This document shows, one piece after another, positions 7,024-27,724 of a DNA stretch of 64,000 nucleotides. The stretch lies in the IMG/VR virus record IMGVR_UViG_2923350032_000001, positions 750 through 64,749 of that record; one strand, written 5' to 3'. Both the position numbers and the translations under genes were made by a program. This DNA comes from a virus (Duplodnaviria > Heunggongvirae > Uroviricota > Caudoviricetes). The notes beneath the pieces were generated by a model. The model worked only from the letters and a program-made list of their open reading frames with translations, was not told the DNA's origin and did not search any database. Each line of letters opens with the position of its first letter. The first letter of the stretch is position 1.

Positions 7024-8217
7024 GTGACCTGGGACGATCACAAGAAGAATTTTGCTCGCCTGGCGCGAGATGGTGGTTACACCATCGCACAGTATGCCGC
7101 CGAGTTTAATCTTAACCCTAATACCGCACGTCGTTATCTCCGTGCCTTCAAAGAAGACTCCAGGACTGCGGACAGCCGCAAGCCAAATAAGCCAGTCAGG
7201 AAGCCACTAAAAAGCATGATCATTGATCACTCTAATGATCAACATGCAGGTGATCATATTGCGGCTGAAATAGCGGAAAAACAGAGAGTTAATGCCGTTA
7301 TCAGTGCCGCAGTCGAGAATGCGAAGCGCCAAAATAAGCGCATAAATGATCGTTCAGATGATCATGACGTGATCACCCGCGCCCACCGGACCTTACGTGA
7401 TCGCCTGGAACGCGACACCCTGGATGATGATGGTGAACGCTTTGAATTCGAAGCTGGCGATTACCTGATAGATAACGTTGAAGCGCGGAAGGCCGCGCGC
7501 GCTATGTTGCGTCGGTCCGGGGCCGATGTTCTGGAAACCACTCTTCTTGAAAAGTCTCTTTCTCATCTCCTTATGCTGGAGAACGCCAGGGATACGTGTA
7601 TTCGCCTGGTGCAGGAAATGCGCGATCAGCAAAAAGACGATGATGAAGGTACTCCGCCTGAATACCGTATCGCGAGCATGCTAAACAGCTGTTCCGCGCA
7701 GATAAGCAGCCTGATCAACACCATTTACAGCATCCGGAATAACTATCGAAAAGAAAGCCGGGAGGCGGAAAAGCACGCTTTGTCTATGGGGCAAGCTGGC
7801 ATTGTTAAGCTGGCATACGAACGAAAGCGTGAAAATAACTGGTCAGTGCTGGAAGCAGCTGAATTCATCGAGGCGCATGGCGGGAAAGTGCCGCCCCTGA
7901 TGCTGGAGCAAATCAAAGCCGATCTGCGTGCTCCTAAGACCAATACCGATGATGAGGAAAGGCAAACAGCCGTCGGTGGCCCTTCTCTTGAAGATCTGGA
8001 CAAAGTTGCGCGAGAACGGGCCGCCAACCGCCGCGCCGATGCCGCATTGTGGATTGAGCAGCGTAGGGAAGAAATCGCCGATATCGTTGATACAGGCGGT
8101 TATGGAGATGTTGATACTGAAGGTGTATCAAACGACCCATGGCTGGAACAAGACCTGGACGAAGACGAGGAGGAAGACGAAGAAGTTACCCGCAAGCTAT
8201 ACGGGGATGATGATTAA
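7024..8217 (+). CDS. pacA: terminase small subunit / pac-recognition protein PacA
   Basis: 397-aa ORF with GTG start; contains the pac site; acidic C-terminus; recognised as P1 PacA. Confidence 0.92.
7208..7375. other. P1-type pac packaging site: four TGATCA hexamers (7208-7247) and three TGATCR hexamers (7347-7375) flanking the cleavage region
   Basis: hexamers with embedded GATC Dam sites read directly in sequence inside pacA. Confidence 0.9.
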
Positions 8218-9701
8218 TGGCCAGAAGTTGCGTAACGGATCCACGTTGGCGCGAGCTGGTGGCGCTATATCGTTATGACTGGATTGCTGCCGCTGATGTT
8301 TTGTTCGGCAAAACACCTACCTGGCAGCAGGATCTGATTATTGAGTCTGTGCAGGAACAGGGTAGCAAGACATCTGTTTCGTCTGGTCACGGTACCGGGA
8401 AATCAGACATGACTTCTATCATGATCATGTTGTTCATAATCATGTATCCCGGTGCCCGCGCCATTATCGTTGCGAACAAAATTCAGCAGGTAATGACCGG
8501 TATATTCAAGTACATCAAGATAAACTGGGCTACTGCCACCAGCCGTTTCCCATGGCTTGCTGATTATTTTGTTCTGACAGAAACCGCTTTCTATGAGGTT
8601 ACAGGTAAAGGTGTATGGACTGTAGTACCGAAGGGCTTTCGTCTGGGAAGTGAAGAAGCTCTCGCCGGTGAACACGCAGATCATCTTCTGTATATTATCG
8701 ATGAAGCCTCCGGTGTCAGTGATAGAGCTTTCGGTATCATCACCGGTGCTCTTACCGGACAGGATAACCGCATCTTATTACTGTCACAGCCTACACGCCC
8801 AAGCGGCTATTTCTACGATACACACCATAAACTGGCCAAGCGTCCTGGTAACCCTGATGGCGTTTATACGGCGATCACGCTTAACAGTGAGGAATCACCG
8901 TTGGTAACGCCAGCATTTATCAAAATGAAGCTGGCGGAGTACGGCGGGCGTGATAACCCTATGTACATGATTAAGGTACGCGGCCTATTCCCTAAATCAC
9001 AGGATGGCTTCCTTCTTGGACGTGATGAGGTTGAACGTGCAACGCGGCGGAAAGTCAAGATTGCCAAAGGATGGGGCTGGCTTGCATGTGTGGACGTTGC
9101 TGGTGGTACGGGACGGGATAAGTCCGTTATCAATATCATGATGGTGTCCGGCCAGCGAAATAAACGCCGTGTAATCAACTATCGAATGCTGGAATACACA
9201 GACGTTACAGAAACGCAGCTTGCCGCCAAAATTTTCGCAGAATGTAATCCTGAGCGATTCCCAAATATCACCATAGCGATAGACGGCGATGGGCTGGGTA
9301 AAGCAACGGCGGATCTGATGTACGAGTATTATGGTATTACCGTACAGCGTATACGCTGGGGTAAAAAGATGCATAGCCGTGAAGATAAGAGCCTGTACTT
9401 TGATAAACGTGCTTATGCCAACGTTCAAGCCGCAGAGGCCGTAAAATCTGGTCGTATGAGACTGGATAAGGGTAATGAAACTATTGAGGAAGCGTCGAAA
9501 ATCCCTGTAGGGATTAACTCCGCAGGTCAATGGAAGGTGATGAGTAAGGAGGATATGAAGAAAAAACTCAACCTGCACTCACCAGACCATTGGGATACAT
9601 ATTGTTTCGCTATGCTGGCGGATTATGTTCCCCAGGATGAAGTGCTTAGCGTCGAAGACGAAGCGCAGGTTGATGAAGCTCTGGCATGGCTTAATGAATG
9701 A
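8217..9701 (+). CDS. pacB: terminase large subunit PacB
   Basis: 494-aa ORF overlapping pacA stop; recognised as P1 PacB. Confidence 0.92.
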
Positions 9702-9703
9702 AT

Positions 9704-9720
9704 ATTTGCTCTAATAAATT
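9704..9720 (+). promoter_or_regulatory. C1 operator (ATTTGCTCTAATAAATT) heading the c4-icd-ant-like module
   Basis: consensus match immediately after pacB stop. Confidence 0.65.
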
Positions 9721-9789
9721 GTGTTTTTTAACTGCCGATGTTACATTGAACCTGACCTCTTGCGCCTTGAGGCATTTTCGGTTTATGCT

Positions 9790-9885
9790 TATCAGGCACC
9801 TCATTAAAACGGGTGCCGGGATTGAGACCCCGGATAATGCAAAAGGCGACACAGACGCCAAAAGCGTCTTTTTTTTGTGTCATGC
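9790..9885 (+). ncRNA. candidate c4-like antisense immunity RNA ending at hairpin GACGCcaaaaGCGTC + T-run
   Basis: structured untranslated leader between operator and icd-like ORF; terminator-like hairpin at 9862-9885; segments complementary to sequence near the icd RBS. Confidence 0.3.
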
Positions 9886-10061
9886 CATCGCACAGCCATA
9901 CGTAGCGTTTAGCTCAGAGATCAATGGTAGTGCTGGCTGGGCTGCCGAAAGGCAGGCCGGTTCCCTTTTGCGCCGGTAGTCTCAACCCAGTCAGTGCTAC
10001 CGCCATTGAGATTGAGACCTCACGCGGTAGCTCCTTAAATTAGCAAAAGGAGGCTGCCATT

Positions 10062-10283
10062 GTGGCTACTATCCCTACCCCTGCTCATCCTGAATTTATC
10101 TGGCGCTTTTACTCCTGCCAAAAACGTCACTATCACTTCGTTATTGCACCGACAGAAGATGAGGCACGTTCTCAGCTTCCTGACGCCCCATGTATTTTCT
10201 CTGCCCGTTTTTCCACTGATTCACGCAATTCTCTCAGTTACTGGTGCCTCCCTGTTAACGCTTCTGCTCAGGAGGGACTATGA
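10062..10283 (+). CDS. icd: Icd-like protein (interference with cell division)
   Basis: 73-aa ORF (EFIWRFYSCQKRHYHFVIAPTEDEARSQLPD...) overlapping start of downstream ant-like gene; paralog of ORF 23512-23733. Confidence 0.7.
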   Translation: MATIPTPAHPEFIWRFYSCQKRHYHFVIAPTEDEARSQLPDAPCIFSARFSTDSRNSLSYWCLPVNASAQEGL

Positions 10284-11392
10284 GAACATCGTTAGTTACC
10301 CGTGAAGAGATGATCGAGGCAATTGAACAGCACACTGCCTGTATCAGTACCAGGGATATACCTGGCGTTATTGCCAACTACTTCATGATCACCAAACAAC
10401 TTTACCGGAGAAAGGACAAGAACGCGGTTCACCGTATCCTGCTGTCTGATATCCGCGAATACCTGCTCGAACAGGGGCATCTGAATTACGCAACCGTCGC
10501 AGCCGAAGCACGCAAGGAGGCACACAGAATGAAAGCAACTAACGTTAAATCAGAAAAAATTTATGCACCTTCAGTTCAGGAATCGGAACTGGTGGTTGTT
10601 CAGAATCAGCCGGATGAAATTCCCGTTCTGGAATGGCAGGGAGTACGTGTCGTGACAACCGAAACTCTTGCTAGAGGGTATGGGGTCGATGAAGCCAATA
10701 TTCGCAACAATTTGTCTCGCAACCTTGACCGCTTTGAAGAAGGTAAGCATTACTTTCTTCTAACAGGTTTAAAATTAAGAGAATTTAAGAACAGAGTAAC
10801 CGGAAGTTACTCTGTTGGTAAGAACGCCAGAAGCCTTACACTCTGGACAGAGCGCGGCGCTGCACGCATGTCTAAGATCGTGGACACAAATGAAGCATGG
10901 GCATTCTTTGAAAAACTGGAAGACAGCTACTTCCGACAAAAAGAACAGCAACCGATCGCAATCCCCCAGACGCTTCCTGAAGCCCTACGCCTGGCTGCCG
11001 AACTGGCTGAACAAAAGCAGCTTCTGGAACAGAAAGCCCACCAGCTAAATCAGCAGCTGGTGGCCGCCGCTCCTAAGGTCGATTTTGCCGACCGGGTATC
11101 AGTAGCTAAAGGGATCCTGATTGGGAATTTTGCAAAGGTTGTTGGACTTAAGCAAAACGCGCTGTTTGCCTGGTTACGGGAGAACGGCATTCTGATAGCG
11201 TCCGGCGGGCGTAAAAATGTGCCGTTCCAGCAGTACATAAACGCCGGATATTTCACAGTGAAAGAAGTGGTGCTGGATGATGAAGATGGCTACCAGATAC
11301 GGCTGACGCCCCAATTAACGGGGAAAGGACAACAGTGGTTGACGCGTAAACTGCTCGATGCTGGCTTGTTAAAACCGGTGGCGGCTGAATAA
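10280..11392 (+). CDS. antirepressor-like protein with Bro-N-like middle region and KilA-C/ANT-type C-terminal domain
   Basis: 370-aa ORF; C-terminal 130 aa closely parallel the C-terminus of KilA (25415-26215). Confidence 0.7.
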   Translation: MRTSLVTREEMIEAIEQHTACISTRDIPGVIANYFMITKQLYRRKDKNAVHRILLSDIREYLLEQGHLNYATVAAEARKEAHRMKATNVKSEKIYAPSVQESELVVVQNQPDEIPVLEWQGVRVVTTETLARGYGVDEANIRNNLSRNLDRFEEGKHYFLLTGLKLREFKNRVTGSYSVGKNARSLTLWTERGAARMSKIVDTNEAWAFFEKLEDSYFRQKEQQPIAIPQTLPEALRLAAELAEQKQLLEQKAHQLNQQLVAAAPKVDFADRVSVAKGILIGNFAKVVGLKQNALFAWLRENGILIASGGRKNVPFQQYINAGYFTVKEVVLDDEDGYQIRLTPQLTGKGQQWLTRKLLDAGLLKPVAAE

Positions 11393-11424
11393 TGGAAGAA
11401 TGCCCGGTTGATGCCGGGCATAAT

Positions 11425-12276
11425 TTATTGCGCGCTTTCGGGGTTGTCGTTTACTGGCTGCCCCTTCTTAGTTTTACGACTGCGCGTAACTGATGCGGCT
11501 GATTTGACCTTTTTCTCTTCGCGAGTGATGGCAATTTGTTTTTTTACATTTTCAATATCTGCCAGGCGATATATTTTTGCCTGCGGCCAGCGGTCGCAGA
11601 TGATCGGTTCTATGGAGTCATAAAGGCTAAATTTTGCTTTTTCGAATTCACCGTTGATGATAATTCCATCACGGAGAGTTTCATCGCAGATAAACACGCC
11701 ACACAGTGGCACATGGTAACTAACTGATTTACCATCATTGTAGTTAGGGCTACTGGAAATGTAGTGGACGCGCAGCATTGTTTCGCTAAAGCCGTGTACG
11801 CGCATACGGAATTTTTCATCCTCCGGGTACTGCTTCATTAGCTCTTTTGTTGCTTCCAGGTTCTCTATGTATTTCGCACTGTGCTCATTGATCCCCGCGC
11901 TTTTTTGGATGCGAATGTCCTTATCAATCAGATGAATAATGCGGCCAGCGGTCATGTTGACGCTGTTCACAGCCTCTGTCTGATAAGTTGTAACCTTACG
12001 CACACCGCGAAGGATGTTAGGCACTGGATATAAAATAGTCTTTGGGATATTGAGGTCTGGGTACTGTTCCAGTTCCCGCGCCATTAAAGTCCATTTATCA
12101 ATTTCAGCCTGAATGCTGTCAGTTTCTTTGAACGGTAGAACGACAACCGGGCGTACAGGACGACCGTCGCTGGCTGTATCAACGTGTTGGGCGCGTGCAA
12201 CAGCTTTTTTTAGAAAGAGATCCCTGAAGCTGACGAACTCCTGGTACAGTTGTTCGCCGTAGACATAATTTATCAT
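11425..12276 (-). CDS. c1: C1 repressor of lysis
   Basis: 283-aa product MINYVYGEQLYQEFVSFRDLFLKKAVARAQ... recognised as P1 C1. Confidence 0.95.
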   Translation of the reverse strand: MINYVYGEQLYQEFVSFRDLFLKKAVARAQHVDTASDGRPVRPVVVLPFKETDSIQAEIDKWTLMARELEQYPDLNIPKTILYPVPNILRGVRKVTTYQTEAVNSVNMTAGRIIHLIDKDIRIQKSAGINEHSAKYIENLEATKELMKQYPEDEKFRMRVHGFSETMLRVHYISSSPNYNDGKSVSYHVPLCGVFICDETLRDGIIINGEFEKAKFSLYDSIEPIICDRWPQAKIYRLADIENVKKQIAITREEKKVKSAASVTRSRKTKKGQPVNDNPESAQ

Positions 12277-23182: not shown

Positions 23183-23199
23183 TTCGCTCTAATAAATTT
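23183..23199 (+). promoter_or_regulatory. C1 operator-like site heading the second c4-icd-ant module
   Basis: cTTcGCTCTAATAAATTT. Confidence 0.55.
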
Positions 23200-23259
23200 G
23201 TATTTTTAAGTCGCGAATGCTATCTTTTCGCATCATATTGACCTTTTAATCGTTCAGGC

Positions 23260-23352
23260 TTGTAGTTCCGCCGTCGTAGCAAATTCTGCGACCGGGTTTA
23301 GCAGCCTGAATACTTACGCGGACAACCGCAGATTTCCGATATTGCGGTATTT
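23260..23352 (+). ncRNA. candidate c4-like antisense RNA of the second immunity module
   Basis: untranslated region with hairpin ACCGCAGATTTCCGATATTGCGGT + T-run, arranged like 9790-9885. Confidence 0.25.
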
Positions 23353-23511
23353 TTGTGTCCGTAAACCACGTTACGCCCGAATTATGGTGGGGCGTGATGG
23401 GGAGGCTTCGGCCTGCTGGTTTCGTAAGTGCCAGTCTGCTAACCCCGTCACGTCCTGCCACCTGTTTAGCAGCGGGTCGCAGGTTGTTTATCAACTTACG
23501 AGGCCGTAACT

Positions 23512-23733
23512 ATGGTTAATGCCAATCCTTGCGCACGCCAAGAATTCATCTGGCGTTTCTATTCCTGTAAAAAACACCACTATCACTTCGTTATCGCAGC
23601 AACAGAAGACGAAGCACGCTCTCAATTGCCTGATGGCCCCTGCATTTTTACTGCCCGTTTTTCAACTAACTCGCGCAATTCACTTAGTTACTGGAGCCTC
23701 CCCTTCTCTGCCGACGTTCAGGGGGGTTTATGA
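23512..23733 (+). CDS. icd: Icd-like protein (second copy)
   Basis: 73-aa ORF MVNANPCARQEFIWRFYSCKKHHYHFVIAATEDEARSQLPDGPC... Confidence 0.75.
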   Translation: MVNANPCARQEFIWRFYSCKKHHYHFVIAATEDEARSQLPDGPCIFTARFSTNSRNSLSYWSLPFSADVQGGL

Positions 23734-24775
23734 AAACACCTCTCGTCACCCGTAATGAAATAGCCGAAGCGATCGCCTTGCATACTGCCTGTATGCCGAC
23801 ACGGGAGACCCCCGGCGCAATTGCCAACTATTTCATGATAACCAGACGTTTTTATACCCGAACAGATAAGGCTGTGATCAACAGGCTACTGATAGCCGAG
23901 ATCAGGGATTATTTGATTGAACAAGGACGTCTACGTTACGCAACAGTGGCAGCAGAAATGAGAAAGGAGGCGCGCAGAATGACCGGTAATAATTTGAATG
24001 TTGAAAAACCAGCACCTGTTGCTTCAGCTACGCCATCACCAGCTGTGAATGTTATCTCCAACACTGGAGACACAATCGACAGCCAGACACTGTTAAAGAT
24101 GGTCAATGAAGCGCGTAAGTTATGTGTGGAACCAGAGGTTCGGAACAACAAATTCATCGAAAAAATACTCGACGAATTAGAAGGTGAGGACGGTTACACA
24201 AAAAGTGCAACCGTGCCGCCAGGTGGCGGTACGCCTATGGTTGTCATAACCATGACCTACAAACAAGCCCTGCGAGTCGCGCGCGCGAGTCAAAAGCGGT
24301 CCGCCGTTCGCTGATCGACAAACTGGAAGAATTGCAGCAGGCATACTCCCCTGCCCCATCGATCCCCCAAACATTACCAGAAGCTCTACGCATGGCTGCC
24401 GAGTTGGCAGAGCAGAAAATGCAGTTGGAACAGCAGCTGGTGGCCGCAGCCCCTAAAGTCGATTTTGCCGACCGGGTATCAGTGGCCAATGGAATCCTGA
24501 TCGGGAACTTTGCAAAGGTCGTTGGACTTAAGCAAAACGCCCTTTTCTCATGGTTGCGCCAGAACGGCATTCTCATGGCTTTTGGAGCGCGCAAAAACGT
24601 ACCGCGCCAACAGTACATCAATGCGGGGTATTTCACGGTGAAAGAAGTGGTGCTGGATGATGAAAATGGCTACCAGATACGGCTGACGCCCCAATTAACG
24701 GGTAAAGGCCAGCAGTGGTTAACTCGCAAGCTACTTGATGCTGGTTTGTTAAAACCAGTGGCGTCCTTGTCTTAA
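23730..24775 (+). pseudogene. antirepressor-like gene split into two frames (194-aa N-part, 147-aa KilA-C-type C-part)
   Basis: ORF 23730-24314 ends ...SQKRSAVR*; an overlapping frame continues ...KAVRRSLIDKLEELQQAYSPAPSIPQTLPEALRMAAELAEQK, parallel to the intact paralog 10280-11392. Confidence 0.6.
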
Positions 24776-25327
24776 CGTATTCAGACCAGGATTTGCCATA
24801 AATTACAGGCATGTGTACGATATGCCCAACCCTGTTTTTCAGGGGAGGCGCAACGTTATGCGGGGGTTATGAACTCCTGGATGCGTAGCCTCCAGACAGA
24901 AAAAACCCTCGCCACAACGTTGCATGGAGGCAACCAGCGAGGGCATTCCTTATGTCTGATCAACAAGAGGATAGCCGCAAGCAGTTGCTGTTGCAAGTGT
25001 GCGGAGCTTCGTAATGACTCTTCAAAAAGCTTGCAAGTGGATTGTGACCAACATCATTGTTCCTGTCATCATCGGAGCTTCAAGTTCTGTGTTGGCATCA
25101 GTGATTGCCTCACTTCTCCACATTGCATAACAACATTGAAGGGCGTTAGTTCGCAGTGTAACAGCAGCGCGTTGCGCCCGAACAGGCCACAGGGTAAAAC
25201 CTGTGGCCTTTTTCGTTTTAGCCAGCCACAAATCCACATTGAAAAACGCCTTATACAAAAAAACCTGCCAGCAAACTGGCAGGTTTCTGAGCAGTTCGAC
25301 CAACCCGATCTGGATCGAGTCAGAAAA

Positions 25328-25344
25328 ATTTGCTCTAATAAATT
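25328..25344 (+). promoter_or_regulatory. C1 operator upstream of kilA-repL
   Basis: ATTTGCTCTAATAAATT about 70 bp upstream of the kilA ATG. Confidence 0.7.
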
Positions 25345-25414
25345 TTGTTTTCTGAGTGCAAAGAATCACCATTTCGAGCTGGTGATTGAAGGTTGATGCA
25401 AATTTGGAGAAAAA

Positions 25415-27386: not shown

Positions 27387-27568
27387 TACAATCGTTGCGG
27401 GTGCTTGAGGCTATCTGCTTCAGGCATTACCCGAAAAGCAGATAGAAGAAAGCCCCAGATAACATTACGCGTCCTGCAAGACGCTTAACATTAATCTGAG
27501 GCCATATCTATGCTTAGCATACGTAGATTAGCCTCTTACCGACCAAAAGGTCAAGGAGAAGCAGGCTA

Positions 27569-27724
27569 TGAAGCAGCAAAAAGCGATGTTAATCGCTCTG
27601 ATCGTCATCTGTTTAACCGTCATTGTGACGGCACTGGTAACGAGGAAAGACCTCTGCGAGGTACGAATCCGAACCGGCCAGACGGAGGTCACTGTCTTCA
27701 CAGCCTACGAATCTGAAAGGTAAG
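27569..27724 (+). CDS. hok: Hok/Gef-family type I toxin (51 aa)
   Basis: MKQQKAMLIALIVICLTVIVTALVTRKDLCEVRIRTGQTEVTVFTAYESER fits the Hok/Gef pattern; overlapping mok-like frame 27510-27716. Confidence 0.8.

Follow-up and report, generated by a model that had tools for sequence, protein, structure and literature searches.

The 64,000-nucleotide stretch of DNA analysed here (the window; positions 750 to 64,749 of the IMG/VR record IMGVR_UViG_2923350032_000001) belongs to a P1-like (Punavirus, IncY) phage-plasmid and contains, at 9705-11421 between the genes pacB and c1, a complete cassette of the immI type (c4-icd-ant). The canonical slot upstream of kilA-repL is filled by a separate module (23183-24775, plus strand), and the first-pass annotation, which had placed one module of operator, leader, icd and antirepressor gene at each of these two sites, is confirmed in that all of the parts it described are present. 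We consider it likely that the pacB-c1 cassette is an intact second immI module of the isrK/C4 type, which lies in a polymorphic slot and works in the manner proposed below. P1-like phage-plasmids are common carriers of extended-spectrum beta-lactamase and other resistance genes in Escherichia coli and Salmonella, and their coexistence, exclusion and induction depend on immunity modules of this kind.

The borders of the second module are sharp. The stop codon of pacB (8217-9701, plus strand) ends at 9701 and that of c1 (11425-12276, minus strand) at 11425, a distance between stop codons of 1723 bp as compared with 24 bp in P1 (AF234172); P7 has the same 24-bp gap, in keeping with the short intergenic distance given for P1 in the first-pass annotation. 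Homology with P1 extends on the left exactly as far as the stop codon of pacB, and on the right it returns at that of c1; the cassette takes the exact place of the 24-bp spacer of P1. Insertion scars, in the form of a target duplication or terminal repeats, were sought at the cassette borders and none was found.

The module is headed by a C1-operator-like site, TTTGCTCTAATAAATTG (9705-9721, plus strand), which begins 4 bp past the pacB stop codon and agrees with the C1 operator consensus ATTGCTCTAATAAATTT at 15 of 17 positions, a match that would be expected to allow binding of C1. Sites of this type with no more than three mismatches number 15 in the window, against 0.39 expected by chance. 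A putative C1-controlled promoter (9719-9747, plus strand; -35 TTGTGT, 17-nt spacer, -10 TACATT), proposed from reading of the sequence and analogy with the P1 annotation, has a -35 element that overlaps the operator, the same overlap as in P2c4/P51a of P1. A further putative promoter (9760-9789, plus strand; -35 TTGCGC, 18-nt spacer, -10 TATGCT) would put a transcription start near 9796, which is the 5' end of the Rfam isrK match described below. At the -10 position of this promoter the aligned sequence of the relative D6 has TATATT, and the prophage Gifsy-1 presents TTGACA-17-TATATT at an equal distance from isrK. The listing of both promoters has alignment to D6, P1 and Gifsy-1 as its sole basis. 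As a separate observation, the head of the module including the operator (9701-9735) is 86% identical over 35 bp to the kilA operator region (25325-25359), in which the operator ahead of kilA reads TTTGCTCTAATAAATTT (25329-25345).

Two RNA genes follow. The first is an isrK-like leader RNA (9796-9877, plus strand) comprising the elements a1 and b1 and an intrinsic terminator. It matches the Rfam isrK family (RF01394) over 9796-9874 with 59 bits (E 4e-10), above the gathering score of 50, and is matched in the same register by the c4-a1b1 model (RF03163) at 22.3 bits (E 0.002), below the threshold of 46.7 for that family. The a1 element, TTGAGAC (9822-9828), occupies the loop of the second hairpin, b1, GCAAAAGG, lies at 9839-9846, and the terminator consists of a stem at 9853-9869 followed by a run of T residues. 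The leader as a whole is strongly structured (z -5.4).

The second is a 79-nt C4-type antisense RNA (9926-10004, plus strand), for which the Rfam C4 family (RF01695) gives a full-length match at 9920-10007 (model positions 1-87; 75 bits, E 8e-13, gathering threshold 45). Its predicted fold has a free energy of -46.6 kcal/mol, and the minimum-free-energy structure reproduces that of the family, taken as a long stem that encloses two hairpins and a single-stranded junction. The recognition element b', CCTTTTGC (9964-9971), is presented in the loop of hairpin 2 and a', GTCTCAA (9979-9985), in the single-stranded junction. Immediately downstream are their predicted pairing partners on the plus strand, a2, TTGAGAC (10012-10018), for a' and b2, GCAAAAGG (10043-10050), for b'. 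The b2 element overlaps the Shine-Dalgarno sequence of icd, AAGGAGG (10047-10053), and the layout is that of the annotated a2 and b2 of P1. As a1 and b1 are identical to a2 and b2, copies of the C4 target are present upstream of C4 as well. In P1, too, C4 pairs by way of a' and b', and a1 and b1 are annotated upstream in addition to a2 and b2. In pL9-1 and other plasmids the Prokaryotic Genome Annotation Pipeline (PGAP) annotates here a 39-residue open reading frame (ORF; 9924-10043) as an 'ash family protein'; it sits almost wholly on the C4 RNA and is probably an RNA gene called as protein.

The protein-coding part of the module comprises an icd-like gene (10062-10283, plus strand; 73 amino acids) with a GTG start, where RCS47 and D6 have ATG, and the antirepressor gene ant (10280-11392, plus strand; 370 amino acids), the stop codon of the former overlapping the start of the latter as ATGA. 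The Icd protein belongs to phrog_1426 (E 2e-45) and the Ant protein to phrog_63, 'anti-repressor Ant' (E 1.6e-136). Ant combines a P1 Ant1-like N-terminus with an ORF6N middle domain (PF10543; 66.6 bits, 2.5e-18, cutoff 27.8) and a C-terminal ANT/KilAC domain (PF03374; 109.3 bits, 1.6e-31, cutoff 25.3). An in-frame internal ATG at 10529, preceded by a Shine-Dalgarno sequence AAGGAGG at 10514-10520, occupies the position of the P1 ant2 start. The gene order of immI, operator-c4-icd-ant with an icd/ant overlap and ant1/ant2-like overlapping frames, is thus found in full. Between the stop codons of ant and c1 a GC-rich hairpin (11400-11421; a 9-bp stem with six GC pairs, followed by AATTTATT) is probably a terminator shared by the two genes.

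Comparison with the canonical module bears out the suggestion that the two Icd proteins and the two Ant N-termini are paralogous and diverged. Both Icd copies have 73 residues and are 79% identical (E 3e-40), and the N-terminal regions of the Ant proteins are 46% identical over 162 amino acids; their KilAC ends are 86% identical. The middle domains, which had been described as unrelated, are indeed so at the level of domain matches, with ORF6N in the second Ant and no Pfam match in the middle of the canonical one. The ORF6N region itself varies between loci at the pacB-c1 site, with identities of 64-100%, and is absent from one of them (L045).

The canonical module presents the same architecture, with an operator (23183-23199), an Rfam c4-a1b1 element (23260-23312), C4 (23386-23462; Rfam match 23380-23465), icd (23512-23733, plus strand) and a split ant (23730-24314 and 24332-24775, plus strand). 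All six recognition elements are found in both modules in the identical order a1, b1, b', a', a2, b2; in the canonical module they start at 23298, 23312, 23423, 23436, 23466 and 23494, and in the second module at 9822, 9839, 9964, 9979, 10012 and 10043. What the two modules do not share is the sequence of these elements. In an alignment of P1, P7, RCS47, D6 and the window, the second module has TTGAGAC as its a motif and GCAAAAGG as its b motif, and the canonical module has TTAGCAG, the allele of P7, and ACTTACG, the allele of D6 orf19. This latter combination matches neither that of P1 (a TTGACAG, b GTTAGTG) nor that of P7 (a TTAGCAG, b GATTGTG). The a and b motifs of each module were sought in the other, and none occurs there.

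The predicted pairing follows the motifs. When the exposed part of each C4 was paired with the target regions of both modules, the cognate duplexes were strong (-29.6 to -35.6 kcal/mol; z -2.7 to -4.7 relative to shuffled targets), whereas the non-cognate duplexes, at -13.6 to -16.4 kcal/mol (z +0.5 to +1.1), were at the level of shuffled sequence. The two modules are therefore predicted to be orthogonal in C4 recognition and, at the level of sequence, the proposal that the pacB-c1 insert is an immI cassette of different specificity is upheld.

Evidence that these motifs are under selection comes from their variation among related loci. In RCS47 the b motif differs in a coordinated way at all three of its sites: b1 and b2 both read GTCAAAGG, and b' reads CCTTTGAC. 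We extended this comparison to a set of isrK-type loci made up of 70 IMG/VR loci with the C4 stem of the second module together with the window, RCS47, JL22, D6 and pIso00270_01. These present four allele combinations, formed by TTGAGAC or TTGGAAC as a and GCAAAAGG or GTCAAAGG as b, all four of which occur at the pacB-c1 site. The three copies of each motif agree (a1 identical to a2 and complementary to a', and likewise for b) in 73 of the 74 analysable loci. Such co-variation across dozens of loci, in four combinations, needs selection on pairing and, given that the a1 and b1 copies co-vary with the others, the isrK-like element is the a1/b1 element of the isrK type of module. The exception (L051, in IMGVR_UViG_2778261639_000014) has an a1 allele that differs from its a' and a2, and is evidently a recombinant with its junction between the isrK-like RNA and C4. 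The contig runs from pacB through an isrK-type module straight into kilA-repL, as if two modules of this type had recombined with each other and c1, along with everything else between the two slots, had been deleted. The P1-type leaders behave similarly. In more than 100 IMG/VR loci (L082-L199) at least two a alleles (TTGACAG and TTAGCAG) and six b alleles (GTTAGTG, GATTGTG, ACTTACG, ACGAATG, GTACATG and ACTTGTG) occur in many combinations, and all of the parsed target copies match.

The second module shares with immI of P1 and P7 (Op51/Oc4 - a1 b1 - c4 - a2 b2 - icd - ant1/ant2) the order of its parts, the C1 operator at its head, a C4 RNA that belongs to the same Rfam family and folds alike, the ATGA overlap of icd and ant, the placing of b2 on the icd Shine-Dalgarno sequence and the presence of a and b target copies both upstream and downstream of C4. 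It differs in lying between pacB and c1, where immI of P1 is upstream of kilA-repL beside the sim genes, in having an a1/b1 region of the isrK type with an intrinsic terminator of its own, in a and b motifs unrelated to those of P1 and P7, and in the ORF6N middle domain of its Ant. A tandem or segmental duplication of the canonical module was considered as its source and rejected: outside the C4 core the two leaders of the window barely align, the coding regions are 71-79% identical at the nucleotide level, and the isrK-type leader is shared with D6. The view of the two modules as diverged paralogues stands for Icd and Ant; the leader is an isrK-type variant rather than a diverged copy of the P1 type, and this variant is also found in D6, Shiga toxin (Stx) phages, APSE and Gifsy-1.

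A close parallel to the leader outside the pacB-c1 site is found in the second icd/antirepressor region of D6 (orf83-orf82); the two leaders have a and b alleles in common and are 86% identical for most of their length, rising to 95% in the isrK-C4 core. Like the window, D6 has two modules, one of the P1 type and one of the isrK type. The isrK-type module of D6, however, is located between ref and pmgF, has no C1-operator-like head and encodes a different antirepressor of the Rha/Roi/KilA-like kind.

Another counterpart is the isrK-orf45-anrP locus of Gifsy-1, which like the second module comprises isrK, a C4 homologue and an antirepressor-like gene. In this locus (NC_010392, 34131-34329, minus strand) the C4 homologue (69 bits) follows isrK directly, and the c4-a1b1 model overlaps isrK above threshold, the isrK and c4-a1b1 models both matching one element. 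The a1 and b1 motifs can be read in isrK, a' and b' in C4, and a2 and b2 after them, b2 lying on the ribosome-binding site of anrP. The Gifsy-1 locus differs in being part of a lambdoid prophage with a different repressor, and in lacking icd, the antirepressor gene following directly. In Gifsy-1 part of the isrK transcription continues past the terminator into the genes that follow, the mRNA from there on is untranslated on its own, and IsrK supplied in trans raises the translation of anrP about 140-fold by pairing with the orf45 region, the nucleotide sequence of which is conserved where its amino-acid sequence is not (Hershko-Shalev et al., 2016; PMC4825925). In that paper neither P1 nor icd occurs as a term, and a statement linking IsrK to C4 was not found. 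The location of a C4 homologue in the very region with which IsrK pairs leads us to read the isrK-like RNA as a putative decoy that would hold or titrate C4, and suggests that Gifsy-1 has a C4 system in which IsrK plays the part of the a1/b1 decoy.

How the module may work can be put together from these observations. Its parts, their conservation, the three-way co-variation of the motifs and the predicted orthogonality come from the present analysis; binding of C1, use of the promoters, processing of C4 (by RNase P), translational repression, the action of Ant on C1 and the immunity phenotype are carried over from P1 and Gifsy-1. Transcription would start at the C1-operated promoter and at the second promoter ahead of the isrK-like RNA. 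Most transcripts would end at the isrK terminator, and those that read through would carry C4, icd and ant. C4 would then be excised from the transcript and, by pairing of b' and a' with b2 and a2, would mask the ribosome-binding site of icd and so prevent translation of icd and, through translational coupling, of ant. The a1 and b1 decoys of the isrK-like RNA would hold or titrate C4 and, when C4 is short, Icd and the Ant1/Ant2-like proteins would be made and Ant would inactivate the C1 repressor. In a lysogen C1 and C4 would jointly silence icd and ant, which loss of C1 or an excess of decoy RNA would release. Because the a and b motifs differ wholly between the two modules, each C4 should silence only its own ant, and the element would have two independent antirepressor locks, with incoming relatives of either specificity repressed and the two-lock element itself escaping the immunity of lysogens that lack either C4. 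If the modules are orthogonal, a two-module element would be immune to more of its relatives and break the immunity of more lysogens.

A number of points weigh against this proposal. A sigma-70 scan ahead of the second-module leader returned no promoter above threshold, and both of the putative promoters are weak matches to the consensus. The isrK terminator lies upstream of C4, so that the supply of C4 needs read-through or a further promoter. In the published model for Gifsy-1 (Hershko-Shalev et al., 2016; PMC4825925), what lies downstream of isrK is a translated orf45 rather than a C4 RNA. That the second Ant acts on C1 is assumed from its likeness to P1 Ant, although its middle domain differs and its N-terminus is only 46% identical to that of the canonical protein. 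More generally, the function attributed to the module in this element would follow from sequence and homology rather than from experiment. The last point concerns the canonical module. Compared with P1 it lacks one base pair of a CG run near 24283, and this deletion splits ant into ORFs of 194 and 147 amino acids. Should the deletion be genuine, the element would have no full-length Ant other than that of the second module, and the picture of two locks may fail here. Among database records pL9-1 alone matches the 161-bp stretch containing the deletion exactly, the best-matching other records having one extra base; the frameshift was accordingly rejected as a feature of the lineage, and it is either a very recent inactivating mutation or a sequencing error.

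The main rival to our reading keeps the regulation as proposed but has Ant act on the repressors of other prophages instead of C1, which would make the module a plasmid-borne moron engaged in the prophage cross-talk that has been described for the Gifsy antirepressors. It would account for the fact that the isrK-C4 leader fronts proteins of the Rha/BRO/ORF6N type in unrelated lambdoid Stx phages, phiP27, APSE and Gifsy-1, and for a middle domain that is unrelated to P1 Ant and variable at one and the same site. We nevertheless regard it as improbable, since the module is headed by a C1-operator-like site and its Ant is that of P1 at the N-terminus, at the internal Ant2 start and at the KilAC end. 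Furthermore, pIso00270_01, with an empty pacB-c1 site, has upstream of kilA-repL a single cassette, which is of the isrK type and encodes a related Ant, and in about nine IMG/VR loci an isrK-type module fills the canonical slot; apparently, a P1-like element can have such a module as its sole immI. The suggestion that the second module is a decaying, non-functional duplicate deserves very little credence. Beyond the GTG start of icd, where RCS47 and D6 have ATG, nothing specific speaks for it; the icd and ant ORFs of the module are both intact, its RNAs score well above the Rfam thresholds, the recognition motifs co-vary over dozens of loci in four allele combinations, and the broken ant of the window is the canonical one.

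Our preferred reading of the cassette as an intact second immI module is independent of how it came to lie at the pacB-c1 site. The occupied site may be the older state, with P1, P7 and SJ46 having lost the module, in which case the terms 'inserted' and 'acquired' would be wrong for it. Occupied and empty sites are near equally common, the empty-site elements SJ46, 813R1 and phiW39 are 98-99% identical to the flanks of the window, and the borders carry neither a target-site duplication nor any other insertion scar that we could find, all of which would be in accord with loss. Conversely, the exact fit of the module between two stop codons and the wide occurrence of its leader type outside P1-like elements favour gain, and similar cassettes are found elsewhere in relatives, between ref and pmgF in D6, in RD-1 of pSvP1 and at several positions in some IMG/VR contigs. 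Such placements suggest repeated acquisition of these cassettes. None of these points is decisive, and on balance we hold an ancestral occupied site to be rather unlikely. The finding of an icd-ant module between pacB and c1 in other P1-family genomes had been named in advance as evidence against insertion should that arrangement prove ancestral; the arrangement does occur in such genomes, and that it is ancestral is the rather unlikely case just described.

The arrangement is by no means unusual. The pacB-c1 site is occupied in the phages RCS47 (FO818745), JL22 (ON018986) and vB_EcoM-673R5 and empty in P1, P7, SJ46, phiW39, 813R1 and others, and in PLSDB 258 records have an occupied site against 314 with a P1-like empty junction, an occupied share of about 45% among elements with a scorable site. 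RCS47, JL22, vB_EcoM-673R5, pTZ20_1P and pL9-1 share the site and gene order with the window at 92-100% nucleotide identity, and pL9-1 (NZ_CP142045.1), an E. coli plasmid from chicken, is 100% identical over 2.8 kb around the second module and probably the source of the window. For pTZ20_1P, a pair of small hypothetical ORFs and an ant between pacB and c1 have been reported 'as in RCS47' (Venturini et al., 2019; PMC6906374), and a second antisense-RNA/icd region has been remarked on for a D6-like plasmid. The cassette was thus already known and common, and the gain here is a modest one of annotation. In the records of RCS47 and JL22 RNA genes are unannotated at the site and the genes are called 'ant' (the name used in RCS47), 'roi' or hypothetical; the JL22 paper makes no mention of the cassette. 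No description was found in the open-access literature that treats the sequence between pacB and c1 as a complete immI unit, equipped with C4 and a1/b1 RNAs of its own and differing in specificity. What databases present as ant plus hypothetical ORFs at this site can be annotated as a full immI unit with two RNA genes. A related observation comes from phi456, where OR339795.1 70652-71622 matches only the KilAC end of the second ant together with c1 (window 11030-12000) at 97.6% and is annotated as 'Ant2' beside c1, which suggests a truncated or rearranged pacB-c1 module.

More tentatively, and with somewhat less confidence than would make it our expectation, these comparisons may extend to P1-like phage-plasmids in general, in which two to four mutually orthogonal C4/antirepressor modules would be stacked, taken from a pool of recognition alleles that recombines freely, with pacB-c1 as a regular second socket and the isrK leader as a sponge for C4. 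If stacking is the rule, the heteroimmunity network of these resistance-carrying plasmids could be read from a few motifs of 7-8 nt. If the leader is a sponge, the 'orf45' region of Gifsy-1 would be a C4 RNA gene and IsrK would activate the antirepressor by titrating C4. Contigs that, as assembled, have more than two modules occur among the IMG/VR records, at lengths of about 97-103 kb. As assembled, 2703718869_000013 contains four separate C4 modules (L096, L130, L177 and L198), and 651053023_000001 (L093, L155 and L181) and 2713896909_000009 (L061, L145 and L199) contain three each. All of the readable alleles differ within each of these contigs, C4 is followed by icd wherever the available DNA reaches far enough, and in most cases ant can be seen as well.

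The surroundings of the two slots contain other identifiable genes. Upstream of pacB lies pacA (7024-8217, plus strand), and on the far side of the second module coi accompanies c1 on the minus strand and is followed by cre, from 13430. Just downstream of repL, an Rfam match to the sok antitoxin RNA (27399-27573, 115 bits) indicates an addiction locus of the hok/sok type.

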